Source of the DNA: Bdellovibrionales bacterium
GTDB taxonomy: Bacteria > Bdellovibrionota > Bdellovibrionia > Bdellovibrionales > JAGQZY01
NCBI GenBank assembly: GCA_031426555.1
Contig: JANPLN010000065.1
Location: 1-64,000 of the forward strand
Reading direction: 5' to 3'
DNA length: 64,000 nucleotides
The translations under genes were made by a program, and so were the position numbers. Each line of letters opens with the position of its first letter. The stretch's first letter is position 1. Below are positions 1,439 to 21,933 of the stretch, piece by piece. A model generated the notes under the pieces. That model had not been told where the DNA came from. It saw only the letters and a list, made by a program, of their open reading frames with translations, and made no database searches.

Positions 1439-2671
1439 ATGCAGGAATTGAATTCGGATCAGCAGAGTGCTCTTGAGCTTTTAAAAGGCAAAGAAAATAT
1501 TTTTCTTACCGGCGCTGCTGGCAGCGGAAAAAGTTTTCTCCTCAAAGAATATCTGAAGGGCAAAGACATTCCCATTCTCGCAAGCACTGGTGCCGCTGCG
1601 ATTTTGGTTGGTGGTCGAACGTTTCATAGTTTTTTTGGTTTGGGGATTATGGAAGGTGGTGTTGAAGCCACCGTGAAGCGCGCGAGTAAAAATAAAAAAT
1701 TAATGAAACGCATTCGGCAATATTCGGAAATCGTTATCGACGAAGTGTCCATGTTATCGGGACCCACGTTGCGTGCCGCGGAGCTGATTGCTAAACACGC
1801 TCTCAGCAGTCTTGCGCCGTGGGGCGGACTGCGCGTGATTGTGGTGGGCGACTTTTCGCAACTGCCACCGGTAAACCCCTTCAGCCGACAAAAAGAATGG
1901 GCCTTTCAAGATCCTGTGTGGGAAGAAAGTCGTTTCACTCCGGTGATTTTAAAAAAAATCATGCGCTCGTCGGATGTTGAATTTTTAGAAATTTTGCGAC
2001 GAATTCGCCACGGAGTGCTCGACGACAGCGTCACGGAATTTTTGGACTCAAGGGTCAAAGTGAAACCCACCGGAGATTTTACACGACTGTTTCCCCATCG
2101 TGCCGATGTAGACACCTACAATTTTCAGCAACTGCAGGAGATTGACCATGAAGTGCATACGTTCACGACGGTTTACTCGGGCAAAGAGGCGGACATCGAG
2201 CGCTTTCGCAAACATTCGCCCATTGCGGACGTGATCCATCTTAAAAAAGACGCGTTGGTGATGATTCGCCAAAACGATCCCGTAGGGCGTTGGGTGAATG
2301 GGTCTTTGGGACGAATTCAAAAAATTTCCGATGAAAGTTTAAAAATCAAATTAGACGGTGGGCGAACTATTGATCTTGAGAAAGCTGAATTCACGCTGCT
2401 CGATGCCGACGGCAATCCCGCAGTGAGTGCGACAAACTTTCCGATCACTTTGGCTTGGGCCATGACGATTCACAAAGCCCAAGGGGCAACGCTGGATCAA
2501 ATGCATGTGGATTTGCGAAAGATCTGGGAGCCCGGGCAAACCTATGTAGCTCTCAGCCGAGTGCGCAGTCCTCAGGGCTTATTTATCGAGGGTTGGAGTA
2601 AGAGCGCCATCTTCAGCGACCGTGATGTTTTCGCATTTCACAAATCTTTGGTTACGACTACGGACGTGTAA
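1439..2671 (+). CDS. PIF1-family (SF1B) DNA helicase
   Basis: GAAGSGKS Walker A, IDEVSM, GDFSQLPPV, TIHKAQG, YVALSR; start moved to 1439 because the track ATG at 1352 lies in the repeat arm. Confidence 0.9.
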   Translation: MQELNSDQQSALELLKGKENIFLTGAAGSGKSFLLKEYLKGKDIPILASTGAAAILVGGRTFHSFFGLGIMEGGVEATVKRASKNKKLMKRIRQYSEIVIDEVSMLSGPTLRAAELIAKHALSSLAPWGGLRVIVVGDFSQLPPVNPFSRQKEWAFQDPVWEESRFTPVILKKIMRSSDVEFLEILRRIRHGVLDDSVTEFLDSRVKVKPTGDFTRLFPHRADVDTYNFQQLQEIDHEVHTFTTVYSGKEADIERFRKHSPIADVIHLKKDALVMIRQNDPVGRWVNGSLGRIQKISDESLKIKLDGGRTIDLEKAEFTLLDADGNPAVSATNFPITLAWAMTIHKAQGATLDQMHVDLRKIWEPGQTYVALSRVRSPQGLFIEGWSKSAIFSDRDVFAFHKSLVTTTDV

Positions 2672-3221
2672 ATAAAAGTTCAAAAGGTCTGCGGTGAATT
2701 GTGTAAGGAATATCCCCGAATTCACTTTCTTGAGCTGTAATGAACTCGTACGATGCCAACATATTAAAACCATAACGAGCGGCCAGTCGGCCCGACCACG
2801 TGTTAAAAGCGGCATCTTCAATACTCATACGGTTTCTGAGGTTTGCGTGAAATTGGCTAAAATTAGTTCCACCACTCCAAACATCTCGTATGGCCGTTAT
2901 GTTTTGTACTCCAAAATGTTGAATCATCTGTGAGTAAAGGTCTCCGCCATGCATGTGACTTCGGATTCCAAGTCTTGTGTTTACAAGCTCCGCATCCAAG
3001 AAGAGCGTTCCGTCATTTTCCAGTTCGGCGACAAATTTAAAACCGTAGGTTTTATCCGTGAACGAAAACTTGTGACCCAGTTTTACTAAATACTCTTTTT
3101 CACTCTGAACAGTTTTATAAACATTCAAAAATTCAAAACACTGCATCCGTGCGTCAGCGGAGCCAGTTATGAGGAGTGAAACGAGTAGAACGCAAATTCT
3201 CATTGTGTAGTTTACCTTCAA
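2658..3221 (-). CDS. Small secreted protein, possibly polymorphic-toxin-like domain
   Basis: Signal peptide ending ADA; C-terminal HFG...W..GTN...AAFNTWSGRLAARYGF pattern. Confidence 0.6.
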   Translation of the reverse strand: MKVNYTMRICVLLVSLLITGSADARMQCFEFLNVYKTVQSEKEYLVKLGHKFSFTDKTYGFKFVAELENDGTLFLDAELVNTRLGIRSHMHGGDLYSQMIQHFGVQNITAIRDVWSGGTNFSQFHANLRNRMSIEDAAFNTWSGRLAARYGFNMLASYEFITAQESEFGDIPYTIHRRPFELLFTRP

Positions 3222-3333: not shown

Positions 3334-6300
3334 ATGAAAAACAATCTTTTAAACGCCTTTTGGGTACTTATAGCTTATACAACTATCAACGTTTTGGTCA
3401 GCCAGCAGGCTCTTGCACTTGAGCCGCACTGCAAGCTTTATACGGACGCTCCCTTAAGCCAAGATCAGACCCAGTACTTTGAAAGCCAACTTGGCTATTC
3501 ACTTCAAAAGGTACCAACTAGCACGATCACCAACCATGAGACGTTGGCTCCGCTATTAACCGATTCGTCGTTTGTGCTGACCCAATCTCGTACAAAAAAT
3601 AAATTCGTACTTTTTATGAGTATCACACAAGGGAAGTATAATTCTAAGGGGTGGATCCCCTTGGAGGTCCCCGTTCAAGCAGATCTAGCTAAAAACTCCA
3701 ATTTAAGCTGTCGCTTGATGGCCGAATATGTTCCGTACAATCGCAAATCCCGTGAGAGCGTGGTTTATATGATGAGGCACGCTTTGAGTTTAAAAATGAA
3801 TCCGGAAATCACATTTGGCCAAAGTTTGATACAACTCGAGCATCACTACTTGATCTCTCGAGGAGAAAAGGCTCCGGACTTAGAAAAAATAAATGCAAAA
3901 TATGTTCAGATTCTGCAATACATTAAAGATCTTCGCATTGAAAATAAGGATGTGATTGCATCATGGCCTAAAGTGTACCAGGCCATCTATTCTCCGCAAA
4001 ACTTCAATATCGATTACTGTCGCCGCGACACCCTTTTGATTTCTGCACTTGATAAAAAGTGTACGAATTGTGTGGGTTTTGCCTCTCTATTTATTTCACT
4101 CTTTATAGATTCTGGGTTTCAACCACCCAAAGGCTGGATTTTGGGGTTAGAACTCCTTAGAGATCACATTAAACCGGTGCTTTATTCAAAAAAGAACAAC
4201 AAAGTTTATGATCTATCCAGCGGCGAGTTTGCCAAGCCGGTGGGTGCCATTTACCCGACAAGCGCGCTCAGTCGCCCGGCTGTGGTTGGCTTTGATCGTT
4301 TGGTCGTCCGCGAAGAGAAAAAAACATTAGCAAAAAACGGAACACAGCAACTCTACGCGCCTTTACTATGCGTTACTAAACCATTGGATTTAGGCTACCG
4401 CACCCGCCTCCAACTTTTTAATTGGGGAAGTTACAAGTTTTGTGGCCGTTATTCAATGGACTCTCCCCCAGAGCACGAAAATTTAGATGCCGTTGCCGAT
4501 TTGGGAAACCGAGAGAGAGTGAGTGGTCAATTGCCAGCTAAAGATCAAGCGCAGGTGAGTGACCAAACGCAAGCTAACGAAGAAGCGCGATCCAGCGATC
4601 AAACGCAATCTGGCGAGCGAGCGTCGGGAATTCCGTCGCAAAATTCGCCAGGAGGGAGCTTTTTTAGTGGATTCGCAAGCTGGTTTACAGGAACCGGACT
4701 CTACAGTGCAAAGGCTATTGATTATAAACAGAAAATATTAGACAAAGCCGAATATCTGTCGAAGAGTGAAAAATCTGAAGTCGAAAGATTTTCGCGCGAG
4801 TCCCATAGTTCTTTCTTTGCCAACTATAAACTCACCGATTTTTTTAAAGAAATAGGGAAAGAGTCAGATCTAATCACAAAGAAAATGCAAGATGCAGACT
4901 TTGCAAAACAAATCGAAGAAATTTATTTATTCCCAGCTCCTTTGTTTGAAGTTTCAAGCGGACCAGGTTGTGATATCTTTCTTGAAAGCGGTTGGGGAGC
5001 TATTGATATTGAGAAGACTCTGTATCCATCTGCTGCCGGTTTACATTCGTTAGATAGATATGCGCTGATTTCGAAGCACTTCAAAGATAAACTGCAAAAA
5101 AGCAGGCGCGAGCTTCCGTTTACGTCGAAAACCGATTTGCCATCGATCATACCATTTTTGTCTAATCCACAAACTACGGAGAAGTGGAGAAACTATTTTA
5201 AAACCATGTCTTGTAATGCCGATTTCCAAAGAACATTACCGACACGGCTTTTTTATCGAAACTTTAAGCCCTTGCCTGAGGAGTTGAACAATAAAATCAT
5301 GTCGCTTCTTTTAGATCAAGACGATTTGCTTGAGAAAGAAGTGGAGACGTTTTCGCAAAAAATAAAAAACTTGTTTCTTACAAATCCTCTGCTTGTCTTG
5401 TCAGAGATCGATAAGACAGCAGCAAATTCGCAAAACTTGGCAAGATCGGTAACTCTAGTTCTCGGCGTGGGTGAGAAGCAGCAGCACATACGTTCGGTTT
5501 TAACCCAGACGGAACCGCGTGGTAAAAGTTCGATACAACAAACGAAACTAGAATTTCTCGATTCGGTTTTTTGGCATGAGAAGTATTATTTTACCGTGAC
5601 CCCTGACGAATCTGAAAAAATTTATCAAAACACGACTGTTTTAAAAATCGCGGATTTAAAGGTGGTTGCATCGCCCACAACGCTACCTTATGTTCAACTC
5701 CCCAAATTACCTTTGGATTGGTGCAAAAATAATGCGACTGGGTACGTGGGAGGCAAAGGGCTTTATGTGGATTGCGGGAACCGCACTGGCGAGGGCTCGC
5801 AAACGAAGATTTCGAATAAAACAACAGGCGCCTCGTCTCAGAAAGAATCCATCGGTCAGGGGCTTGAAACACAAGCGGGCCTCGAAAAGGGGACGGCAGA
5901 GTCTACAGATCCAATCATCACTTCTATTGATTTAACGGGTCAGGCGCCTGCAAATCAAAACACGCAGACTCTCTTGAAGGATCCTCGTATCGAAGTGCAA
6001 CTAAAGCCAAGAACATTTGAGTACTTATATTATTTGAGTGCGCGGAACGATGAATTTCCTGCGTCGATCAAGCTAGGTTTATTCCACTCATACAGAAATG
6101 GTTTAGAGACACTTTTTCAGAAGTATTTTAAAGGCGGAATCTACTTTTATGTTAACGAGTATTCACCACACAGTGTTGTGGTAAAATCCTCTGAATTGCT
6201 TAAAAAATTAAAACAATCCAGTCAATGTTTCCTTCCAGGGTTGCTAAAGCTCAAGGTGTTTCGCCTCTACGAAGATGAAGCCTGTCGAAAAGCGTTCATA

Positions 6301-6699
6301 AAACAGATTTTTCAAAATAAAATAAAGCCCCGTTGGACGCATTTACCGGCGATTTATCAACAAAACGATTCTACGCGTGTGGCTTTTGATCGGTTGCTAA
6401 AAAATACAAATACGAAATTTGAATTATTGGATGGAATAGCCCAGCAGGAACTCAAAAAAGAGTTTTCTATTTCGAAACCTCGCCAATCCTTATTTTTTTG
6501 GGAACTCACCTTGAATTCAGAGACCATCTTTCAGGTCATGTATGGCAAGCCTACCCGAGCAGGGCATGGGGACTACGTTGATTACTTCTTTCAATCGGAA
6601 GCGATCACTCAATCCGTCAGTGAGAATCATCTGAATGAGCTTTCGGAAATCTATAAGTCAGAACACCTAGGAATGGGAGATTTGTATTTTGATTTTTAG
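3334..6699 (+). CDS. Large secreted protein with putative transglutaminase/papain-like Cys-His-Asp domain
   Basis: Signal peptide ending ALA; TNCVG...RDHIKPV...VYDLS; track start 3304, likely start 3334. Confidence 0.65.
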   Translation: MKNNLLNAFWVLIAYTTINVLVSQQALALEPHCKLYTDAPLSQDQTQYFESQLGYSLQKVPTSTITNHETLAPLLTDSSFVLTQSRTKNKFVLFMSITQGKYNSKGWIPLEVPVQADLAKNSNLSCRLMAEYVPYNRKSRESVVYMMRHALSLKMNPEITFGQSLIQLEHHYLISRGEKAPDLEKINAKYVQILQYIKDLRIENKDVIASWPKVYQAIYSPQNFNIDYCRRDTLLISALDKKCTNCVGFASLFISLFIDSGFQPPKGWILGLELLRDHIKPVLYSKKNNKVYDLSSGEFAKPVGAIYPTSALSRPAVVGFDRLVVREEKKTLAKNGTQQLYAPLLCVTKPLDLGYRTRLQLFNWGSYKFCGRYSMDSPPEHENLDAVADLGNRERVSGQLPAKDQAQVSDQTQANEEARSSDQTQSGERASGIPSQNSPGGSFFSGFASWFTGTGLYSAKAIDYKQKILDKAEYLSKSEKSEVERFSRESHSSFFANYKLTDFFKEIGKESDLITKKMQDADFAKQIEEIYLFPAPLFEVSSGPGCDIFLESGWGAIDIEKTLYPSAAGLHSLDRYALISKHFKDKLQKSRRELPFTSKTDLPSIIPFLSNPQTTEKWRNYFKTMSCNADFQRTLPTRLFYRNFKPLPEELNNKIMSLLLDQDDLLEKEVETFSQKIKNLFLTNPLLVLSEIDKTAANSQNLARSVTLVLGVGEKQQHIRSVLTQTEPRGKSSIQQTKLEFLDSVFWHEKYYFTVTPDESEKIYQNTTVLKIADLKVVASPTTLPYVQLPKLPLDWCKNNATGYVGGKGLYVDCGNRTGEGSQTKISNKTTGASSQKESIGQGLETQAGLEKGTAESTDPIITSIDLTGQAPANQNTQTLLKDPRIEVQLKPRTFEYLYYLSARNDEFPASIKLGLFHSYRNGLETLFQKYFKGGIYFYVNEYSPHSVVVKSSELLKKLKQSSQCFLPGLLKLKVFRLYEDEACRKAFIKQIFQNKIKPRWTHLPAIYQQNDSTRVAFDRLLKNTNTKFELLDGIAQQELKKEFSISKPRQSLFFWELTLNSETIFQVMYGKPTRAGHGDYVDYFFQSEAITQSVSENHLNELSEIYKSEHLGMGDLYFDF

Positions 6700-6717
6700 A
6701 GCGGTGAAGTGGCTGCT

Positions 6718-7269
6718 CTATTTTTTAGGAATCTGACTTTTTGTCGCAGCCGCTACCGAGGCACCGTGCATCTTAAGAGCTTCGGTGCACTTCATCAGTA
6801 AAAGCTCTTTTTCGTTGAGCATCTTTTGCATGGACGACATGCGGTTTTCAAAATTGCGAAGTGCGACCGACTGGCGTTCGATCAAACCTTCCACTTTCGC
6901 TTCTTCAAACCCCTGAGCTTGTATTTTTTCGCGAACTCCGCGCATTTTATCTTCGGTGTCGCGCGCTTGGGCGTGAACCGATTTTTCCACCCGCGATAAG
7001 GCCTGTGACAGGCGATCGAAGCGCTGATCGAAGGAATGTACAAAATCTGTCAGTTGGTTTTTAAAAACTTCCATTTGATTGTCATAATTGCGAAGTTTGG
7101 CCTTAATGCCCTGGACCTCTTCGTTAATTCGTTGAACTTCCATGTGAGACGACGGGGAGAGCCCCGAATGCCCAGAACCGTGAGTGGGCGAGGCAAAGGA
7201 GCCTGCGCGGTCCGTCGCGGTGTTGTTAGTAACCTCATCAAATAGGCCCGGATTCAGCTTTTTGTGCAC
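6718..7269 (-). CDS. Coiled-coil hypothetical protein
   Basis: 183-aa ORF with heptad-like charged helical sequence. Confidence 0.7.
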   Translation of the reverse strand: MHKKLNPGLFDEVTNNTATDRAGSFASPTHGSGHSGLSPSSHMEVQRINEEVQGIKAKLRNYDNQMEVFKNQLTDFVHSFDQRFDRLSQALSRVEKSVHAQARDTEDKMRGVREKIQAQGFEEAKVEGLIERQSVALRNFENRMSSMQKMLNEKELLLMKCTEALKMHGASVAAATKSQIPKK

Positions 7270-7332
7270 TTTAACCCCTTTGACACCAAATTTTGCTGGA
7301 CGATGTCACCATCCTTTCTTAACCTGAAAGGG

Positions 7333-8325
7333 ATGGATACTGTTCTTCAGCTTGCCAGACATATTTTGCGCTTTCAACCGAACAAAGATGCTGCGCGTCT
7401 TTGTTTCTATCATTTCCTCATCCATCACTGCGAACCTACGGATAAGGTGACTCCCGAGCTGGTTGAAAACTTTAATCGCTTTGTGCTCAGCTTTGAACAC
7501 TGGCGAAAAAATCGGCATCAGCTGGTGCAGGAGATGCAATATTTTTTGCACCATTTCGCCGAAACCTATCAAATCAAATTAGAATTTAAAAATATGGTTT
7601 TGCCAGATCGTTGGCAGGTTGTTGCCATCGACAATCCCATCGATTGTTTAAAAATTCTCGAAAAGAAATTTTCCGATGCGGGAAACAAAAGTCGTTTGAT
7701 CGCCACCACCAACGGAACCTTTATTTTGTTGAGCATGGACGAATCACAGGCCATGACGGTGACCCACCTCAACAACCTCATGCTGATCAATAACATCGGT
7801 GAGCTTGAACCCTTAAATCCTTTGATGAAGATCCACTACACCGCAGACCTCAGTTTACAGTTTCAAAAAGTTCAATACGTGGAAGTGGCTCCCAGTGTGA
7901 CCGCCCGCTTTATGATTTTGGGGCCGGGCATGCATGGCAATCTGATTCGCGGTTACACCTTTCAGAAGGCCGAGGAGTTTAAGGGTGGCAATGTGGCTCA
8001 GTACCCGCAGGTTTACTACGCCATTAAGAGACTGGAACAGTACTTTGTGGATCGCAAAACAGACCCTATGTACCAGGAGCTCACACAGCTTTTAGAAAAA
8101 GCTATAGAACTCGTGAACTTGCGGCACCCCGAAGCGCTCACGTTTGGCCAGGCCGCTCTTGAGAGAGGCGAATCTGCCAAGGAAAATATTTTCCAAAATG
8201 ACAATATGATTCGCCTTTTAACGCAAACTCTGCGATCTTCGCTGCAAAATAATCGCAATCTGATTGTGACATCGGAAAAGCAAAGAGAGATCCCATGGCA
8301 GAAAGATCAACTTCTAATCGAGTAA
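7333..8325 (+). CDS. Hypothetical protein
   Basis: Long ORF overlapping the start of the next gene; likely start MDTVLQ (track start 7264). Confidence 0.7.
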   Translation: MDTVLQLARHILRFQPNKDAARLCFYHFLIHHCEPTDKVTPELVENFNRFVLSFEHWRKNRHQLVQEMQYFLHHFAETYQIKLEFKNMVLPDRWQVVAIDNPIDCLKILEKKFSDAGNKSRLIATTNGTFILLSMDESQAMTVTHLNNLMLINNIGELEPLNPLMKIHYTADLSLQFQKVQYVEVAPSVTARFMILGPGMHGNLIRGYTFQKAEEFKGGNVAQYPQVYYAIKRLEQYFVDRKTDPMYQELTQLLEKAIELVNLRHPEALTFGQAALERGESAKENIFQNDNMIRLLTQTLRSSLQNNRNLIVTSEKQREIPWQKDQLLIE

Positions 8326-9092
8326 GACTCAATAAATATATCGCCGACTGCGGTATCGCCAGCCGCCGTAAAGCCGACGAAATGATCGAAAACGGCGAAA
8401 TCACCATCAATGGGAAAAAAGTTTTTGAATTGGGCATCCGCGTAGATCCTAAGCAAGATCGCATTTTGTTTCGCGGTAAGCCCATTCAGGCGCAAAATCG
8501 CTTCGTGTATTATGCCTTTAACAAGCCCAAAAGCGTGGTCACAACCACCGACGATCCCCATGGTCGTAGAACCGTGATGGACTTTTTTCCAAAAGCCAAG
8601 CTGCGCTTGTTTCCAGTGGGACGTTTGGATTTTGATTCTGAAGGTCTATTAATTATTACCAATGATGGCGAGTTTGCACAAAAAGTGATTCACCCTGATG
8701 AGCACGTGACAAAAACCTACCACGTTAAGCTCAACGGCATTCCCACAGATCCACAGCTGGATAAACTTCGCAGAGGGGTGTCCATCGTCGGTGGAAAAGT
8801 TTCGGCGTTGCACGTAAAGCGGTTGTTAAAAGCCACAGATAAAAAGTCCTGGGTCGAAGTGATGATCGACGAAGGTAAAAACCATCAGGTGAAGCAGATG
8901 TTCACCAAGATTGGTTTTGATGTGGAAAAATTGCGTCGAGTTTCCATCGGCGAATTTCGCATAGGCAGTCTTAAACCGGGCGAACATCGCGAGCTGACTT
9001 TTGAACAAATTCACAAAATCTTTAAAAAGCGCAGCAAAGCCAAAAAAGACGACAAAGAGCCTAAAGATAAAAATGCCGTAAAATTCGTCTAA
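8295..9092 (+). CDS. rluB: rRNA pseudouridine synthase, RsuA/RluB family
   Basis: S4 domain (RLNKYIADCGIASRRKAD), GRLDFDSEGL catalytic Asp motif. Confidence 0.88.
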   Translation: MAERSTSNRVRLNKYIADCGIASRRKADEMIENGEITINGKKVFELGIRVDPKQDRILFRGKPIQAQNRFVYYAFNKPKSVVTTTDDPHGRRTVMDFFPKAKLRLFPVGRLDFDSEGLLIITNDGEFAQKVIHPDEHVTKTYHVKLNGIPTDPQLDKLRRGVSIVGGKVSALHVKRLLKATDKKSWVEVMIDEGKNHQVKQMFTKIGFDVEKLRRVSIGEFRIGSLKPGEHRELTFEQIHKIFKKRSKAKKDDKEPKDKNAVKFV

Positions 9093-13892: not shown

Positions 13893-14711
13893 TTAAATTT
13901 TCGTCACGTCGCCAAGCTTACTAATATAAAAGCGCTTGGCGATGGGGCTGTCGTCGTAGGCCACAAAAAAATCGCCATCGGGAGAGCGCACAAGGCCGAT
14001 GGGCTCGATGAGGCGCTCGCGACCGGGGGAGCCACCGTTTTTGTAGGTCATGCGCACTCGGGTGCGTTGGTACATGGCATCGATCAAAAGTCCTAAACTC
14101 TTCGATTTAAATTTTAATTCATCCATGGAGTAGTCTTTCCAATAAAGCTCTCCATCTTGCATTTGAAAAATATCTTCCAATGATTTGAGCTGCGCGCGTT
14201 CAATACAGTGGAGCGCCACTTGCAGGCAAGCGATGGCGTCGTCCAAGGCGCGATGGGCTGCACCCTGAGTAATGCCCAAGTGGGGGATGAGAGTTTGTAG
14301 CTTGTGATTTTTGGAATCCTTAATCACATTGCGCGAAAGGCGGCTGCTGCAGATCACAGGTTTTGAAGGCAGCTCAAGGCCCAGGGCTTCAAAGCCCACA
14401 GAGATAAAACCCATATCAAAAGACGCGTGGTGAGCAATCAGTGTCCCATCTTGAATAAATTTGTGGAACCCAGGGAGAACATCCTTCAGTGCCGGTGCAT
14501 CTTGCACCATTTCGTTGGTGATTCCATGGATTTTAATCACTTCCTCACCCATTGGTCGAATGGGCTTGATGAGTGACTGAAAGGTATCGATGATTTCGCC
14601 GTTAAGATATTTAGCAGCGGCGATTTCGCAAATCTCGGATTCGATGGGGTATTTGCCTGTGGTCTCTGTGTCAAAGCCGATAAAAGTAGAATTTAAACTG
14701 GTCGTGATCAT
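13893..14711 (-). CDS. DnaQ-like DEDDh 3'-5' exonuclease with C-terminal WYL-like domain
   Basis: FDTETTG, AHHASFD, HRALDD; C-terminal MTY...ERLIEPIGL...FFVAY...KRFYISKL. Confidence 0.85.
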   Translation of the reverse strand: MITTSLNSTFIGFDTETTGKYPIESEICEIAAAKYLNGEIIDTFQSLIKPIRPMGEEVIKIHGITNEMVQDAPALKDVLPGFHKFIQDGTLIAHHASFDMGFISVGFEALGLELPSKPVICSSRLSRNVIKDSKNHKLQTLIPHLGITQGAAHRALDDAIACLQVALHCIERAQLKSLEDIFQMQDGELYWKDYSMDELKFKSKSLGLLIDAMYQRTRVRMTYKNGGSPGRERLIEPIGLVRSPDGDFFVAYDDSPIAKRFYISKLGDVTKI

Positions 14712-14725
14712 GGGGATCTTGTATC

Positions 14726-16459
14726 ATGGAGCACATGACGAAAGCACTTGTAATTTTTCTGTTAGTTATTGTTGGCAATGCAGCGCAGGCCCTGGATATT
14801 TCGCCTGCAAACGACAAGCAACCGGTGCAGGTAAAATCCGCGCGAGTGTCCCCGCTCGAGGTAAAGCCGGGCAGTCGAATCAGCGTTTCCATTGATGTGG
14901 ATATCACGCAAGGTTTTTCGGTTTATGAAGACAAACTCAAATTGTTCCCGCTGGAGCCCGATGGAATGACTTTGGGTGGTTTGCAAATGACACCGGTGGT
15001 GGAGTTTGTGGATTTTTCAGGAAAACAGCATCGCGGATTACTGAAAACCGCCCGCCTCGATTTTTTTGCCGAAATTCCCAAGGATGCAGACGCCCCTTTA
15101 AAAACCTTCGCCATGGATTTGGAATACATTGCGTGCACCACCAAGTACTGTTCACCGCCCACCAAGCTCGAAGTAAAGCTTCCGATAAATATCCAGTCGC
15201 GAGATCTGGTGCCCAATTCCTCCATGATCGAACAGCAGATTTCTAAAAATTTATTTTGGGCGTTCGTCCTCGTTTTTGTTTTCGGGTTTTTAACGTCTCT
15301 CACGCCGTGCGTGTATCCGCTGATTCCCATCACTCTCGCGGTGATTGGAGCTCGCGCTTCACAACTCTCTAGGGCACAGGCATTTGGTTTAAGTTTTGTC
15401 TATGTGCTTGGGATCTCGGCCACTTATTCTTTACTTGGTGTTGTAGCGGCAAAAACGGGGGCTTTGTTCGGACAGGCGTTGAGTTATCAGCCTGTCGTTA
15501 TGGCCTTTGTGATTCTTTTTGTATTAATGGCCTTAAGCATTTACGGGTATTTCGAAATTGGAATTCCACATTTTATTAGCAAGCGTCTCGAAAAATCAGG
15601 GGACAATCGCGGCTACATGGGCGCCTTCTCGTCGGGGCTCATCGCCGGAATCGTCGCCAGTCCCTGCGTGGGCCCGGTGCTGGTGGGAGTGCTTGCGTAC
15701 ATCGCAAAAACGCAAAACATCGTACTTGGATTCTGGTTGTTATTTACCTTCGCCATGGGCATGGGTGTTTTATTTTTATTTATTGGAACTTTTAGCTCGT
15801 CGTTTAAAAAACTACCGCGCTCGGGGCCCTGGATGGACGTGGTCAAATTTGTGCTTGGCACAACCATGTTGGGTGTGGCGCTGTATTATTTAAAACCGCT
15901 GCTGCCCGATGCATGGTTTACCATCTGCTTAGCATTGATGATTGCCGCAGCTCTCTTTATTTTTATCGCCAAGGTTTACCCAAAGGTGGATCATAAATTT
16001 TGGCACTACATGCCGTTTATCTTTTGCGCGCTGATTGTTATTAGCCCCTTAGTCATAAAAATTCCAACGTCGTCACGCAGTACAGAGCAAACGCAAAAAG
16101 CGGCCCTTAAAAACGGTTGGACCTACTATTCCGAAGACGCCTTAAGCAAAGCCAAAGAGCAGGGAAAGCCCGTCATTATCGATTTTTTTGCCGACTGGTG
16201 CGCAGCCTGCCTCGAGCTCGATGAAAAAACTTTCGCGAAGCCTGAATTTATCGAAGCGACAAAAAATTACACGTTGCTAAAAGTGGACGCTAGCGAAAAC
16301 TTTCCAGAGCTTGCAGATTTACAAAAGAAGTACGAAGTCTATGGCTTGCCAACGATTGTATTTATCGACAAAACCGGCAACGTGGTCAAAGAGCTTACGC
16401 TCACCGGCTTCGAAGAGATCGAGCCCATGATGGCTCGATTGAAGACATTGAATCCTTAA
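14726..16459 (+). CDS. dsbD: Thiol:disulfide interchange protein DsbD
   Basis: N-domain CTTKYC, transmembrane TPCVYP and SPCVGP, thioredoxin WCAAC. Confidence 0.92.
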   Translation: MEHMTKALVIFLLVIVGNAAQALDISPANDKQPVQVKSARVSPLEVKPGSRISVSIDVDITQGFSVYEDKLKLFPLEPDGMTLGGLQMTPVVEFVDFSGKQHRGLLKTARLDFFAEIPKDADAPLKTFAMDLEYIACTTKYCSPPTKLEVKLPINIQSRDLVPNSSMIEQQISKNLFWAFVLVFVFGFLTSLTPCVYPLIPITLAVIGARASQLSRAQAFGLSFVYVLGISATYSLLGVVAAKTGALFGQALSYQPVVMAFVILFVLMALSIYGYFEIGIPHFISKRLEKSGDNRGYMGAFSSGLIAGIVASPCVGPVLVGVLAYIAKTQNIVLGFWLLFTFAMGMGVLFLFIGTFSSSFKKLPRSGPWMDVVKFVLGTTMLGVALYYLKPLLPDAWFTICLALMIAAALFIFIAKVYPKVDHKFWHYMPFIFCALIVISPLVIKIPTSSRSTEQTQKAALKNGWTYYSEDALSKAKEQGKPVIIDFFADWCAACLELDEKTFAKPEFIEATKNYTLLKVDASENFPELADLQKKYEVYGLPTIVFIDKTGNVVKELTLTGFEEIEPMMARLKTLNP

Positions 16460-19400
16460 AACAAGTCTACGCAGCGCAATCCGGTTTGCGCAGGTGCGGC
16501 CGGCCGAGTTACTTGAAGTGTCATCCCCGTTCGCGATCGTTCCACCACGGACTTGAGTTCCGAGGAAATAAGGCTGTCCACGAGTACGTCCCAGGGGCCC
16601 ATGCTTTTTGGATCTCTCTTTGAAGGTTCACCTCTCCGTTGAAAGAACAATCGCATTATGATTCTTCTTAAAATCACGGATTCGAAAACAGCTCGATCTA
16701 AAATGATGGCTCGTTCCTTGGTTTTAACACTCAACGTTGAGTTGATATGATCAATTTTTGTTACCCCTCCAATCAAAGTTTCGATTTTCTTGGCGGAGGC
16801 GATGTCATCTGCGTGGCCAGAGATTGGTTTTACAAGATGCGCGTAGAGAGTTCGGTAAAGTTTCGCAGACTCGATGCTTTGATTGAGCTGCATTTGATAC
16901 AGAATTTCCATGACCTCGGGGGAAGGATAAAATAGACGTTCTAAATTCAATTGCTGAAGTTCTTGTTGATATCTCTGCCCAAATTGCTGGGACCAAAGCA
17001 CTATTTCTTTCGATCTCACATCGCCAAGGCCGTCAACATCTTCGAGATGTCCTCCGTATTTGGCTAAAAAATAAAATGGGAGGGCGGTAAAAATTCGCGT
17101 GCCAAAAACCATTCCATTTGCATTATCGAGACTGATTCTGCTGAGGTCCATGGGAAGTTCGTCGTGACTCAACGGTTTCAGTAACCAGTCTTTCATGGTC
17201 AGTGCCCACGGCGCAGCAGCTTTATTTACATAATTTAGCTTCTCTGCAAGTACGGAAACTATATCAAGTGTTTTCTCTCTTTGCGCAATGCTGAGGGTTT
17301 CTAATTGGGGATTGTAGACAATGCGGCGGTAGTATTCCAGCCACCAAACAGCATTTACAGTTTTAGGTAGCGTCACATTGTGGGATTTGTCTACTAGATA
17401 GTCTTCGCCGTGGTCTTGCATAGCCCGATAGCGGAAGTCCATGAGATCATCTCCGGTCATCGTGTATTTGGAGAGCTTGAGTTGGGCTTGAAGAGCTTGC
17501 CGGTGAGATTCATCGATATGATCGATCATTCGTTGGGCAAAGGGCGCTTGGTCTAGAAGATCTTGAAGAAGAAGCGGCGGCAGTGGTTGTAGAGTGGTGG
17601 CTATTTTAGAAAACCAGTTTAATTTCTCATCTGGAAGAACAACACCAAAGGCTTTCACGGCTTCGACAGCCAATGCTTGCTTCATCATGTAGAGCTCGAT
17701 GTTGCTGACCTGTGAGCCAATGTAAGCATCGACTTGGTAGGCTCTGTGAAGAGTAAAGATGCCATCTTGAGGAGTCAGGCGGTGGGGAGAAGCATTACCG
17801 CCCAGTGTGATGTCTGCGTCCAAAAGGGGTTGAGCAAACTGAGCAATAAATTGCTTTTGTCCTGGATTTTGCAACGACAGCTGACGAGCCAAAGCGGCCA
17901 ATCTAAACAACGGAATTTTTCCATTGCGTGCATGGATCCCATCGAAGGGAAGTCCCACGGAAAGACTTTGCATACGAAGTTTAGCAACATCCGATGAAAG
18001 GCGTGTGAGTTTTAGTAAATCCTCTGTTCCTTCAAAGGATTCCGCCCACCTGTAATCATAGTGCCAAGGATTTGTGATCCCCAACCTTTGAAAATTGGTA
18101 ACCACTTTGTGTCTGTAAGTTGGGAGCGCATAGGGTGTGCGTGTACTAGTCTCTGTTTGTAGAATCATTTTTAAAAGAGACGGAGCGTTTGGAGCTGCTA
18201 AGACAAGACGTCGCCCTTCGCTGGAGTTCAAAAGAGAAAGTATATTCACAATGGCCACAATTTGCTTTTTTTCAAAATCGGTTAAAGACTTTATGGTGTC
18301 GGCCCAGCTTTCCGGAAAGAGTTCTGTTTTCCCTTGAACAAAGGCCTCATAGACTCTGTGGATACCGCTTTCAGGGCCTAAACGAACACTAGGGTCATTC
18401 ATCATGGCTTCGTAAGTTCGCTGCATGGGGTGTTCTAGCCCGTCATAAAAAAGGCGTTCGATTTGAACATCCTGCAGGAAATATTGCCAAGGTAAGCTGA
18501 GCATTTTCCAGTTGGTAAAAATAAATTCGGAAAGCTGTCTTGAAATCTTGGGCCCAGCACTTTTTTCAGTATTCATCGACCATCTTCCATCAAGATGCAG
18601 ATCTGCTCTTTCTAGGATGGTCTGCACCCAATCATTGATTTGGGTTGAGGTGGGTGGATCAACTTTTACACTCCAACCAAACTGAATTGCAATTTTAGAG
18701 GATTGGCTGAGAATATCGCGCTCTGCATTTTTTAACTTTTGCAGTTCTGAATCATTGATAAGGTCCTTGTCTGATTGAGCTCTTTCCATAATTTCGAGCA
18801 TTGGACTGTCAACTTGCAAGCTGACTAAAGAGTCGATGCTGACCTTTTGGTCATCGAGGGTGATGCCAGACCCCTTTTTTTCTGTGTATTTGCGAAAGGG
18901 CTCATTGCTTTTAGGATCAAATTGGAAAACGGGAAACAGCGTGCTTAAAAGATGGCCAGGAATTTCCTGAAAAAAACGTATAAAAGAACCACCGAAATCT
19001 GTGAGACGAATTCCGGTTTTTAGCTGACTCAAACGCGTTCCTCGACCGAATGCTTGCAAAAGAACTTTAATATTAGAGGATGTGTTCACGTAGACGATTC
19101 GATTTGCTGACGGTAAGTCCACTCCTTCTCCAAGCAGGTCCACACTGATTAGATATCGATGTCTGTGGGAGCTTTGCGTACTATTAAACCAATCTATATT
19201 CTGAGCGACCACGTCCACTGAATTACTTTGTTTTTGTCCTGAGTGAACGACACGAAACTCCATGTTTTCGCTTTTTGCCATTTCGTTGAGGAATATTTTG
19301 TAAATTTCGGCGTGCACGATCGAGGGTACAAAAATGATACCGCGGTCGTACTCAGCCACACGGTCGTTGCGGTCGCGCTGAAATTGCGCTCGCAGGTCGT

Positions 19401-20862
19401 TGAAAACTTTTTCGATAATCGCTGTGTGCACAAAACGGATTTCTTCTCGCAGTGTTTTTAAAATTTCTTCAGGAATCTCGTCCACGTCGGCTCGGATAAA
19501 GGCGTCCTGGTGAGCGCCTAGTTTTTCACTGAGGGCTTGCTGCTCGCGCAGCAATTTTTTCCTAAAACTTAAACCCTCAAAATTATCGTTCATGCCAGTG
19601 ATAAAAGTGAGTTCTTGAAGTGGTGACAGCCAGCCTTCAGTGATGGCACGAACCAGTTGGATGCGAGCAATGCGGTCCGCCTCAACACCCTCGATCAGGT
19701 TTTTGTATTCTTCCACCGAAATAAAAGCCGTCGCAACACGTCCGTCATAATTTGCAATAAGGTCAGGCTGAGTCTCATGCCAAGGTGTGGCAGACATATC
19801 AACCACCACCGTGTTAGCAGAAAGGCGAGACATCATCTGTTCATGAACGACCGCAAACTGTCCCCCCACTTTCCCGGCATGGTGGGCTTCGTCGCGGTAA
19901 ATGACTTTAGGGCCGCTGTATCTTTCGAGAAGGGTGAGTATCTCTTGGCTTCGTTTAAAAAATGTAGAGCGGGTGGCAAGGATAAATCGTGTGTTGCTGC
20001 CAATCGCAGAGGTGGTGCCAGTATCAAATAAGCGCGCCGTTTCTATACCAGGAAAGATTTCCTGTAGTTTTTCTGCTACGTCCGAGAGGATCAATTTGTT
20101 CTCAACCACAAAAACCATCATGGGCATTTGCTGCTGATGAATCGCTTTGACCATCTCAAGAAATTTTAATGCCACAATCGTTTTGCCAACGCCGGTTGGG
20201 AGCATGAGGAGCATGTGCAGCGGATGTGCGATCCCTTGCTTTAAGTGATCTTGGTACATTGTGACCAGTCCTGGGCGAGAATAGTCCCCCTCCTTCTTTC
20301 CCGTCAAAGTTTCTAGTTGTGGAGGAGTAAGTTTTTTATTTTTTTGAGCGGGGAGAAGAGGGTTTTTAAACAAAGGATGCAGAGTCTGATCAGCGCGAAA
20401 GAGAGATCTTGTGAATCCCTTGAGATCTTCGACGTTCAGCAATTCCTTTTGTGAATTGTACATCGCAACGAGATTGCCCTCAATGGCTGGCCCTAAATAT
20501 TCTCCCTTGTTGGATTGAAAACGGTGAACACGCACATCTGGTGGACCTGCGATGTAGGATTCGCCTTCGACAAAGTGGATATTATATGTCGAATAGATGT
20601 TCCATTCGCTGCGCCTTTTTTTGGGTTCGGGAATCAGAACTTCCAGTGTGATGACAGCTCCCTGTTCGGTTTGAGACGTCTTCATACGAAAGGGGTGCTG
20701 CTGGGGGTCGGCTTCGATCCGCGGAAGTAGAGGGGAGAGAACCTCCTTCACATACTGGGCGACATAAGATTCAGGGGTCTGAGCAAAGGCGACAGGGCTT
20801 GAGCTTAGAAGCATCAGAGACAGGAAAAATTGTATTAAACGCATGCGGGCAATATAGGTCAC
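16456..20862 (-). CDS. Large SF2 DExH (ResIII-like) helicase with N-terminal signal peptide
   Basis: PTGVGKT, DEAHH, SATP, IIFVPS, LGEGVDLP, QAFGRGTR; likely start 20844 MRLIQFFLSLMLLSSSPVAFA. Confidence 0.85.
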   Translation of the reverse strand: MTYIARMRLIQFFLSLMLLSSSPVAFAQTPESYVAQYVKEVLSPLLPRIEADPQQHPFRMKTSQTEQGAVITLEVLIPEPKKRRSEWNIYSTYNIHFVEGESYIAGPPDVRVHRFQSNKGEYLGPAIEGNLVAMYNSQKELLNVEDLKGFTRSLFRADQTLHPLFKNPLLPAQKNKKLTPPQLETLTGKKEGDYSRPGLVTMYQDHLKQGIAHPLHMLLMLPTGVGKTIVALKFLEMVKAIHQQQMPMMVFVVENKLILSDVAEKLQEIFPGIETARLFDTGTTSAIGSNTRFILATRSTFFKRSQEILTLLERYSGPKVIYRDEAHHAGKVGGQFAVVHEQMMSRLSANTVVVDMSATPWHETQPDLIANYDGRVATAFISVEEYKNLIEGVEADRIARIQLVRAITEGWLSPLQELTFITGMNDNFEGLSFRKKLLREQQALSEKLGAHQDAFIRADVDEIPEEILKTLREEIRFVHTAIIEKVFNDLRAQFQRDRNDRVAEYDRGIIFVPSIVHAEIYKIFLNEMAKSENMEFRVVHSGQKQSNSVDVVAQNIDWFNSTQSSHRHRYLISVDLLGEGVDLPSANRIVYVNTSSNIKVLLQAFGRGTRLSQLKTGIRLTDFGGSFIRFFQEIPGHLLSTLFPVFQFDPKSNEPFRKYTEKKGSGITLDDQKVSIDSLVSLQVDSPMLEIMERAQSDKDLINDSELQKLKNAERDILSQSSKIAIQFGWSVKVDPPTSTQINDWVQTILERADLHLDGRWSMNTEKSAGPKISRQLSEFIFTNWKMLSLPWQYFLQDVQIERLFYDGLEHPMQRTYEAMMNDPSVRLGPESGIHRVYEAFVQGKTELFPESWADTIKSLTDFEKKQIVAIVNILSLLNSSEGRRLVLAAPNAPSLLKMILQTETSTRTPYALPTYRHKVVTNFQRLGITNPWHYDYRWAESFEGTEDLLKLTRLSSDVAKLRMQSLSVGLPFDGIHARNGKIPLFRLAALARQLSLQNPGQKQFIAQFAQPLLDADITLGGNASPHRLTPQDGIFTLHRAYQVDAYIGSQVSNIELYMMKQALAVEAVKAFGVVLPDEKLNWFSKIATTLQPLPPLLLQDLLDQAPFAQRMIDHIDESHRQALQAQLKLSKYTMTGDDLMDFRYRAMQDHGEDYLVDKSHNVTLPKTVNAVWWLEYYRRIVYNPQLETLSIAQREKTLDIVSVLAEKLNYVNKAAAPWALTMKDWLLKPLSHDELPMDLSRISLDNANGMVFGTRIFTALPFYFLAKYGGHLEDVDGLGDVRSKEIVLWSQQFGQRYQQELQQLNLERLFYPSPEVMEILYQMQLNQSIESAKLYRTLYAHLVKPISGHADDIASAKKIETLIGGVTKIDHINSTLSVKTKERAIILDRAVFESVILRRIIMRLFFQRRGEPSKRDPKSMGPWDVLVDSLISSELKSVVERSRTGMTLQVTRPAAPAQTGLRCVDLF

Positions 20863-20958: not shown

Positions 20959-21933
20959 TTAGCTGACCTGAGCGGCTGGGTGGTGGGCGGGGATGCCTGT
21001 ATTGGCCACGCCTTGCGGTAGGATGGGAACGATTTCAGTTTCCATTTTTTCCGTCACGATAAGATTTTCCAGCATCATTTGTGACAAAGCTTCTAGGTGG
21101 TTAAATTCATCGCTTTTACGAAGTTTTAATTTTTGCGGTTTGCCAGCCACGAAGTTTTTTACAAAACGTTCGAAGGCGTAAACCGGTCCAGCCACACGGT
21201 GGGAAAGGGAGCGGCCAATCATAAACAAGAAAGCACCAAACGCCAAGGTGAAAGCTGTGTAAGTCTGAATGAAGGGAATTAAAAATTGATCGAGCAGCTT
21301 TTGGTTATTACCAATCAAGTCCACCACCATAAAGCGCAAAAAGGTATAACTAAACACGCCGGCGATGAGACCAAATCCCAAACCAATACCCATCAACGTA
21401 AAGCAGTAACGCAATTGAAACGCGGGATTTACCCAGTAGTATTTACGAATATTATTTTGTGGCCACAGCAATTCGCCATCTTTTAAAAGCGCCGTCACTA
21501 AACAAATATAACCCACCCACTGGAGAGCATCTGCAACGTTGAGCACCGGGGAGTGCCAGCCACCCACTTCGAAATAAATAAAATCGATCACATAACCTTG
21601 AATCGTGCGATCGATCACATTGCCGATAATTCCACCCATGAGGGTCGACATTCCAACGCGCAACAAAAGGGATTTGATCGGAAGAAGATACTGAATGATC
21701 ACAAACGTAAATAGTAAAAATGCTCCACCCGTAGAAAGAGAAACAATTCTTAAAATCGGAGGAAGACTAGAAAACAACCCAAGCATAGCGCCTTTATTGA
21801 AATGCAGTGCAAATCCAAGGGGGCCATATTTAAGAGTGCCAGCAAGTCCCAGGGCCCACCATTTGGTTGCTTGATCAATTGCGATCGTAAAGAACATCGG
21901 GGCGAGGACATAAAACCATTCGTGCTTTTTCAT
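20959..21933 (-). CDS. lspA: Lipoprotein signal peptidase II with C-terminal two-TM/HAMP-like extension
   Basis: DQATK, NKGAML, GNVIDR, VIDFI, LNVAD motifs in the first ~150 aa. Confidence 0.85.
   Translation of the reverse strand: MKKHEWFYVLAPMFFTIAIDQATKWWALGLAGTLKYGPLGFALHFNKGAMLGLFSSLPPILRIVSLSTGGAFLLFTFVIIQYLLPIKSLLLRVGMSTLMGGIIGNVIDRTIQGYVIDFIYFEVGGWHSPVLNVADALQWVGYICLVTALLKDGELLWPQNNIRKYYWVNPAFQLRYCFTLMGIGLGFGLIAGVFSYTFLRFMVVDLIGNNQKLLDQFLIPFIQTYTAFTLAFGAFLFMIGRSLSHRVAGPVYAFERFVKNFVAGKPQKLKLRKSDEFNHLEALSQMMLENLIVTEKMETEIVPILPQGVANTGIPAHHPAAQVS

Follow-up and report, generated by a model that had tools for sequence, protein, structure and literature searches.

The window analysed here, 64,000 nucleotides of an uncultured Bdellovibrionales bacterium (assembly GCA_031426555.1, contig JANPLN010000065.1, positions 1 to 64,000 of the forward strand), carries on its reverse strand a gene for a superfamily 2 (SF2) helicase with a predicted Sec leader at its N-terminus and a short motif around a lone cysteine at its C-terminus. 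This motif, which we call the tag, recurs at either end of other signal-bearing proteins of the same genome, and what it may do is the subject of this text. The lifestyle of the source organism is assumed from its order. The helicase gene has the following parts.

16456-20862, minus strand: helicase open reading frame (ORF), 1468 amino acids (aa) counted from GTG, with translation probably starting at the ATG at 20844 (residue 7)
20779-20844, minus strand: predicted Sec signal peptide, residues 7-28, with an AFA end before Q29 (by eye and script)
20263-20778, minus strand: conserved N-terminal domain, residues 29-200, without a Pfam match
19783-20226, minus strand: SF2 RecA1 domain, residues 213-360 (PF04851, ResIII, E 3e-13)
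19030-19353, minus strand: SF2 RecA2 domain, residues 504-611 (PF00271, Helicase_C, E 2.4e-11)
16528-18582, minus strand: all-helical C-terminal region, about residues 761-1445 (AlphaFold2 (AF2) model)
16459-16479, minus strand: terminal tag LRCVDLF including C1464, after a low-complexity linker (alignment and cysteine count)

Both RecA domains of the SF2 core are present, and motifs I, II, III, V, and VI are all intact: Walker A (PTGVGKT), DEAHH, and SATP in RecA1, and LGEGVDLP and QAFGRGTR in RecA2, the same set that a first-pass annotation of this DNA had read. In the N-terminal domain, six residues (Y93, F97, R152, S153, R156, and D158) are invariant in the alignment. The annotation had also placed a long unrecognised stretch behind the core, and a Pfam scan indeed gave no match beyond residue 611. 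An alignment-based AF2 model of the C-terminal region (744 aa) had a mean predicted local distance difference test (pLDDT) score of 59.9 and a predicted template modelling (pTM) score of 0.51, while a single-sequence model of the C-terminal 864 aa had a pLDDT of 34. No nuclease fold and no Foldseek match at E ≤ 0.001 was found in this model, whose length of 744 aa could let single domains escape; the best VIA matches (Z 7.5) were generic helical bundles, and the search returned no stand-alone homologue of 409-1302 aa. We noted that the helical region (~600 aa) seemingly occurs twice in P0007 and P0008 (2040 aa), with a second BLAST segment in P0007.

The leader MRLIQFFLSLMLLSSSPVAFA begins at the ATG of residue 7 (window 20844), and the methionine matching this residue is the start codon of the 90%-identical homologues P0001 and P0002. 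It has a basic n-region, a hydrophobic h-region, and an AxA site, and is the most hydrophobic 19-aa window of the protein (Kyte-Doolittle value 1.75). Signal peptides were called by eye and with a hydrophobicity/AxA script, and by these means the Sec-type leader of the earlier annotation holds. At the opposite end the protein closes with GLRCVDLF, in which Cys1464 is the sole cysteine of the 1468 aa, and no transmembrane window lies near the C-terminus. Between this gene and a 93%-identical orthologue (L021), the ratio of non-synonymous to synonymous substitution rates (dN/dS) is 0.11 for the whole gene, 0.08 for residues 29-200, and 0.026 for residues 201-640; the leader has zero non-synonymous changes at a dS of 0.25. 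Judged from its sequence, the gene encodes an intact SF2 helicase (ResIII/RadD/SauUSI-like) under purifying selection, and the product is a real, intact, and probably exported protein. The core of the helicase adds one new member to a superfamily already known.

A homologue search in which the best 8000 candidates were scored yielded at least 10 database homologues with 29-90% identity. The hydrophobic leader and a terminal C-x-x-[LIVA]-[FL] are kept in 10/10, as the annotation had asked of homologues. Its literal CxxLF, however, occurs in only 3 of the 10; what is conserved is the terminal cysteine motif in the broader form. The tag cysteine lies 4-21 residues from the end, is the only cysteine of the mature chain in all 10 homologues, and is invariant in 11/11 aligned sequences (the query and its homologues). 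A profile search with A1 returned just the same 10 proteins and no leaderless outgroup.

A profile search of 301 genomes of the phylum found distant relatives of the helicase in 13 other genomes (families f15, f27, and f30). In the sister clade, a C-x-x-x-hydrophobic motif stands shortly behind the leader in 11 of the 12 helicases with a readable start, the remaining one (L059) having a C-terminal cysteine motif. A tree of the helicase core (24 rows; midpoint root for drawing only) sets the 11 C-tagged proteins apart from the other 13 with support of 99/98. Taken with the tag positions, this split means that the family's two clades bear the cysteine motif at opposite ends. In L066 (G167:C12), the start region upstream of 6770 is out of frame with the leader, by a frameshift or an assembly error.

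A lone-cysteine tag on signal-bearing proteins

We scanned the source genome for the tag with ORFs called mechanically and signal peptides called by a crude script prone to false calls. Of 849 soluble proteins with a signal, 32 have C-x-x-[LIVFMA]-[FL] just after the leader (6.1 expected) and 15 have it at the C-terminus (1.1 expected), whereas the 1745 signal-less proteins show 30 against 29.2 expected at the N-terminal position and 8 against 5.1 at the C-terminus. For proteins of at least 200 aa, the tail is found in 12/586 signal-bearing and 1/1459 other proteins (Fisher p 2.7e-6), which is the outcome of the proteome scan suggested in the first-pass annotation. Its notion of a terminal cysteine tag is upheld by this enrichment but was too narrow, as the motif is not only a tail: 22 of the 35 proteins in our final set carry it right behind the signal peptide.

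A stricter rule gave 39 tagged proteins (23 N-tagged and 16 C-tagged), of which 31 have one mature cysteine. Four lipoprotein-like or doubtful rows (C2:76294, C57:57508, C67:16867, and C69:35844; 2-6 cysteines each) were dropped, so that later counts tilt towards the interpretation we favour below. The final set, filtered to exclude canonical lipoboxes, comprises 35 signal-bearing proteins with C-x-x-[LIV]-F, 22 with the tag after the signal peptide and 13 with it at the C-terminus. In 21 of the 22 N-tagged proteins, the cysteine lies 3-7 residues behind a predicted AxA-type site, and the residue preceding it is mostly R, Q, T, or S (n = 22). In the 13 C-tagged proteins, the chain ends 0-2 residues past the tag phenylalanine. 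The tagged proteins are mostly unrelated to one another, and in 8/39 cases a tagged gene adjoins another (~1 expected).

The tagged proteins are also purged of other cysteines. Outside the tag, cysteine makes up 8 of 14,268 residues (0.056%), compared with 0.96% in the rest of the exported proteins and 1.13% in those not exported, a 17-fold depletion, and 31 of the 35 have no cysteine beyond the tag (7.9 expected for their lengths). Selection took no account of the number of cysteines. The motif itself was defined partly from this genome. In N, T, and H content (4.35, 5.21, and 2.46%), the tagged proteins resemble non-exported proteins (4.17, 5.27, and 2.33%) as against other exported ones (5.22, 6.31, and 1.64%).

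The window holds a further tagged gene, a paralogue (39% identity) of the tagged gene at C25:57644.

2658-3221, minus strand: second tagged gene, 187 aa, with a signal-like leader followed by ARMQCFEFL, a single mature cysteine, and no Pfam match

The C-tagged proteins of this genome include a ClpA/B-like double AAA+ protein in which both Walker motifs can be read, two Amidoligase_2 proteins (one of them with an ATP-grasp), and a weak PI3/4-kinase-like protein, as well as GH2, 5'-nucleotidase, flavin adenine dinucleotide (FAD) oxidoreductase, nucleoside hydrolase, trypsin-like, and thioredoxin-like proteins. The N-tagged proteins include an S9 peptidase, an EEP nuclease, DUF559 and ParB-like proteins, weak transglutaminase-like and Nt-Gln amidase-like matches, and many orphans. 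Of the 16 amidoligase loci, 2 belong to this genome and 2 are truncated at contig ends; the 12 complete homologues of other genomes all retain leader and tail. Upstream of the long amidoligase, G301 has a gene that is itself N-tagged (LQCTSLF; L087:128-1483). Its apparent counterpart in the source genome (L091:2583-3833, G000:C69) is cut by a contig end, so the tag count given here is a lower bound.

Among 30 tagged proteins of relatives, 7 have a Pfam match: two C1 peptidases, a PLD protein, an acetyl-coenzyme A (CoA) transferase, a weak DUF2252 match, and a pair of adjacent MoxR AAA and vWA genes, both partners of which are tagged. In G226, such a pair lies at L112:881-5077 (minus strand) and 5185-8736 (plus strand) as a divergent MoxR-type AAA plus FGE-sulfatase protein and a vWA protein, both with a signal peptide and a near-identical N-tag (NRCEDLF). 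Meanwhile, 25 of 51 untagged signal-called controls from the same loci have a Pfam match, mostly to ordinary envelope families, and the only ATPase among the 51 is an ABC-F protein wrongly called exported. The sequence evidence is strong that a large class of Bdellovibrionales proteins bears a lone-cysteine tag, hitherto undescribed and not bound to one end of the chain.

Spread, neighbourhood, and candidate machinery

A profile of 18 N-tags was run against the 301 genomes, which are related and not independent samples, and up to 26 of the best candidates per genome were scored. Among the matches listed, several per genome occur mainly inside the order: 1-13 in all 6 other f1 genomes, 3-6 in 7 of 9 g3 genomes, 9 in G140, and 0-3 in genus g10, while genomes outside the order mostly have 0-1, many by chance. 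Inspection of 20 loci around chosen strong matches in 14 other genomes recovered true tags in 13 of these genomes. Use of the tag is thus wide but uneven, and the source genome is rich in it. Against 1.84 billion representatives, the tag profile matched only P0012, a spurious repeat ORF, and it had no match in the PDB or among the NCBIfam sorting models.

Downstream of the helicase gene lie genes for DsbD and a DnaQ-WYL exonuclease, and upstream of it an LspA-like gene. The four neighbours scanned include no methyltransferase, in line with what the first reading had reported. Among five same-genus genomes, the site holds the helicase in G301, is empty in G274 and G303, and is occupied by other genes in G302 and G253, which makes the helicase gene an accessory one. 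We rejected a meaningful adjacency to dsbD and the lspA-like gene, as the site is empty or otherwise occupied in relatives. The LspA-like signal peptidase II (window 20959-21933, minus strand) has readable catalytic motifs and a 170-aa C-terminal extension; it is the second LspA of the genome and is conserved in 5/5 same-genus genomes. The exonuclease (window 13893-14711, minus strand), divergent from dsbD, is a DnaQ-like protein fused to a C-terminal WYL domain. In the close relative, a 968-aa signal-bearing ORF (P0011; L021:10587-13493, plus strand) lies between the helicase and dsbD. It consists of a coiled coil, a Gly/Ala-rich hydrophobic stretch, and a further coiled coil, gives the impression of a pore-forming protein, and has a weak DUF1664 match only in Pfam; the source genome contains no homologue of it.

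By gene labels read from ORFs, the source genome has four secretins, a complete gspC-N cluster for a type II secretion system (T2SS), and type IVa and Tad-like loci, together with four DsbA-like genes above the cut-off, two Lgt genes, and two LspA genes. It also has one FHIPEP gene and one weak VirB4 match, and VipB was not found in it. A second Tad-like locus with its own secretin (G000 C45:762-10795) adjoins a third GspE/PilB-type ATPase outside the T2SS and type IVa clusters and is a candidate route for tagged proteins. Around tagged genes, only what we take to be a transposase-like gene and a small helical protein recur in several copies. The transposase-like ORF family (~160 aa, 64-99% identity) is found at G000 C25:12348 and ~11 further places, and three copies lie near tagged genes. 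No shared motif stands out upstream of the tagged genes (the lowest p was about 1e-5, across many thousands of words).

Possible roles of the tag

We suggest, tentatively, that the tag may well be a covalent handle, probably a disulfide, by which Sec-exported cargo is loaded and then delivered to the inside of prey. Tagged proteins would be exported by Sec and cleaved by signal peptidase I, and the free-ended tag, likely a short helix with the cysteine and a hydrophobic face at +3/+4, would be read in the periplasm. With other cysteines purged, only the tag cysteine would react, leaving the cargo free of internal disulfides and unfoldable. The cargo could then leave through the T2SS or a type IV pilus system, to be released by reduction in the prey cytoplasm. 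There the helicase would translocate on prey DNA, using prey ATP, and its helical C-terminal region would supply targeting or an unrecognised activity; this role of the helicase in prey is the weakest step of the scheme. The first-pass annotation had likewise proposed an exported effector acting on prey nucleic acids, a reading that is supported in part: its suggested looks at homologues and at the proteome both favoured it, and delivery and action on prey nucleic acids stay conjectural.

The conservation of leader and motif, the tag statistics, the composition of the tagged set, and the complete gspC-N cluster speak for this scheme, and three further arguments bear on the mechanism. First, one cysteine is obligatory and the others are removed, as would be expected of a thiol with one specific bond to make in an oxidising compartment, on cargo that has to remain unfoldable. 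Second, a motif at either free end cannot rely on a fixed distance to a membrane helix or to the C-terminus, which argues against processing by Lgt, a sortase-type enzyme, or a CaaX pathway. Third, the periplasm contains no ATP. ATP-dependent cargo and the co-tagged MoxR-vWA pair point to a destination with ATP rather than the periplasm, most simply the prey interior; counted here as ATP- or CoA-dependent are the ClpB-like AAA+ protein, the two amidoligases, and the kinase-like protein, and in relatives the acetyl-CoA transferase and the MoxR and vWA pair.

Several results weigh against delivery into prey. A recognisable ATP-dependent fold is present in only 5 of the 35 tagged proteins, 23 of the 30 from relatives have no Pfam match, and 5'-nucleotidase, GH2, trypsin, and S9 peptidase belong to classes of protein that are ordinarily secreted. 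Blind 400-kb samples of G225, G072, and G139 contained ~1-2 convincing tags per 64-88 signal-bearing proteins, and 140 kb of G024 contained none among 40; with the tag this sparse elsewhere and the helicase accessory, neither can be counted among the core traits of predation. The sister clade has a looser motif and proteins with 1-10 cysteines, so the purge is not universal, and two of its leaders (L063 and L067) could be lipobox-like. No carrier or recurring partner gene is tied to the tag in the tag-locus neighbourhoods or among untagged exported proteins with a lone cysteine. Finally, the tag results do not distinguish a disulfide from acylation, fitting either alike.

The acylation alternative has the cysteine lipidated (S-acyl or diacylglyceryl) by a non-canonical periplasmic enzyme, so that the tagged enzymes are anchored on the predator outer membrane, on vesicles, or at the feeding junction and reach prey contents after the prey inner membrane is breached. 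A lone cysteine beside a hydrophobic face suits lipid attachment, the genome has its two Lgt and two LspA genes, and other cysteine-bearing sorting signals have been proposed to be lipid-modified (10.1101/2023.06.07.544157, in its accessible text). Moreover, B. exovorus is described as disrupting the prey inner membrane at the feeding junction (PMC12428579, accessible parts). However, the tag has no lipobox, its cysteine standing past an AxA-type site in the spacing and residue context given above, and the C-terminal form offers neither Lgt nor a sortase a membrane helix to act on. The LspA-like gene adjoins dsbD without the helicase in G274 and G303, which makes that adjacency uninformative. 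We consider lipidation rather unlikely; were it right, the tag would be a variant of lipoprotein-like anchoring.

A role for the tag in linking the enzymes among themselves, or in attaching them to a scaffold on the surface or in the periplasm, as a multi-enzyme digestion complex outside the predator with no crossing into prey, appears improbable to us. It would accord with the excess of adjoining tagged genes and with the many catabolic hydrolases among the tagged proteins, but no protein with repeated acceptor motifs, nor any other scaffold, was found in this analysis, and the ATP-dependent members would require ATP outside the cell.

We see still less reason to regard the leader as an uncleaved signal anchor, or as unused, and the helicase as a cytoplasmic, membrane-tethered, restriction-like defence enzyme. 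Its nearest solved or curated kin (SauUSI 7clg, RadD, HsdR, and PbeA) are indeed cytoplasmic defence or repair helicases, and its patchy distribution and insertion at a variable site are like those of defence genes. On the other hand, the leaders are short with an AxA-type end, trypsin, GH2, and 5'-nucleotidase proteins bear the same leader and tag, and a cysteine purge of this degree would be pointless in a reducing cytoplasm; PADLOC matches are limited to the helicase core (best E 7e-10). That the tail is incidental and the motif a product of chance is hardly credible: the motif is short and was partly self-defined, but its cysteine is invariant across 29-90% identity, the enrichment is confined to signal-bearing proteins, the purge is independent and unused in defining the set, and tags were recovered in all but one of the 14 other genomes examined around profile matches.

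Returning to delivery into prey, its wider form is an undescribed two-step pathway in which unrelated enzymes of a cytoplasmic type, dozens in number (helicase, ClpB-like unfoldase, amidoligases, MoxR-vWA, kinases, and nucleases), would be Sec-exported, coupled to a carrier by the end-independent cysteine tag, and released in the prey cytoplasm. We regard this as possible but doubtful. If true, the predator would remodel a still-energised prey cell and not only digest it, and the tag would be a one-line rule for effectors. The tag would bear on how Bdellovibrio-type predators bring enzymes to prey cytoplasmic contents. In their accessible parts, a 2025 review finds limited evidence for roles of predator secretion systems (PMC12428579), and a 2026 review states that the prey cytoplasmic membrane stays intact during degradation of inner DNA, RNA, and protein (PMC13689555). 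A predation-induced helicase, Bd1370, has been described (PMC2797640, accessible text) and is annotated as an RNA helicase (PMC12546842, the supplements available), where no sequence is shown for comparison with the present helicase. A five-residue tag that marks cysteine-purged exported enzymes offers a direct experimental handle and a list of candidate effectors from any genome.

We found no description of the tag in the literature covered, outside of which lie most subscription papers and bioRxiv supplements. It is not described in the accessible text of PMC13689555, PMC12622784, 10.1101/2023.11.21.568195, 10.1101/2023.06.07.544157, PMC12428579, PMC11870529, and PMC2797640, and the words 'signal peptide', 'motif', and 'cysteine' do not occur in the accessible text of PMC11656739.

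Comparison with known systems

The nearest solved structure to the helicase is SauUSI, a type IV restriction enzyme (profile E 3e-17 to PDB 7clg, an entry named as the SauUSI structure in the accessible parts of the SauUSI papers), and RadD 6jde matches with a profile E of 2e-11. ResIII/RadD/HsdR-like SF2 helicases share with it Walker A, DExH, SAT, and motifs V and VI; the export leader, the N-terminal domain, the 700-aa helical region, and the cysteine tag set it apart from its SauUSI, RadD, and HsdR kin. We rejected a SauUSI-type enzyme, as Pfam shows no PLD or SRA domain and the PADLOC match to it is confined to residues 567-627, and likewise a type I/III R subunit, with no methyltransferase among the neighbours and HsdR-type NCBIfam scores of 19-24 bits against cut-offs of at least 550.

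The newness rests on the tag, which failed the test of each cysteine-based sorting signal considered. The MYXO-CTERM-type signals are alike in that a short motif with an invariant cysteine occurs on dozens of unrelated signal-bearing proteins per genome (10.1101/2023.06.07.544157, whose accessible text makes no mention of Bdellovibrio). They differ in that their motif is C-terminal and comes with a transmembrane helix and an Arg cluster, whereas the tag has neither and occurs at either end. We rejected identity with MYXO-CTERM because the tagged chains end so soon after the phenylalanine, no helix lies near the end of the query, and no NCBIfam sorting model matches. The lipobox of the Lgt/LspA/Lnt pathway resembles the N-terminal form of the tag in having a cysteine close behind the signal peptide, but the tag cysteine is at +3 to +7 past the AxA-type site, the conserved residues follow it, and a C-terminal form exists. 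The lipobox [LVI][ASTVI][GAS]C was rejected, as the query has no cysteine near its leader and the -1 residue of the N-tagged proteins is mostly one of the four named above. CaaX prenylation, which calls for a cysteine at the fourth position from the C-terminus, was rejected as well, since the cysteine takes the fifth place from the end in the query, lies as far as 21 residues before it in homologues, and is N-terminal in 22 proteins.

The closest analogy, and only an analogy, is with the A subunits of AB toxins, which are exported by Sec and a T2SS-type route, are tethered by a disulfide through one terminal cysteine until reduced, and act in the cytoplasm of another cell. The tagged proteins differ from them in that neither a B subunit nor a translocator has its gene next to that of the cargo, and in that one tag is borne by dozens of unrelated cargoes.

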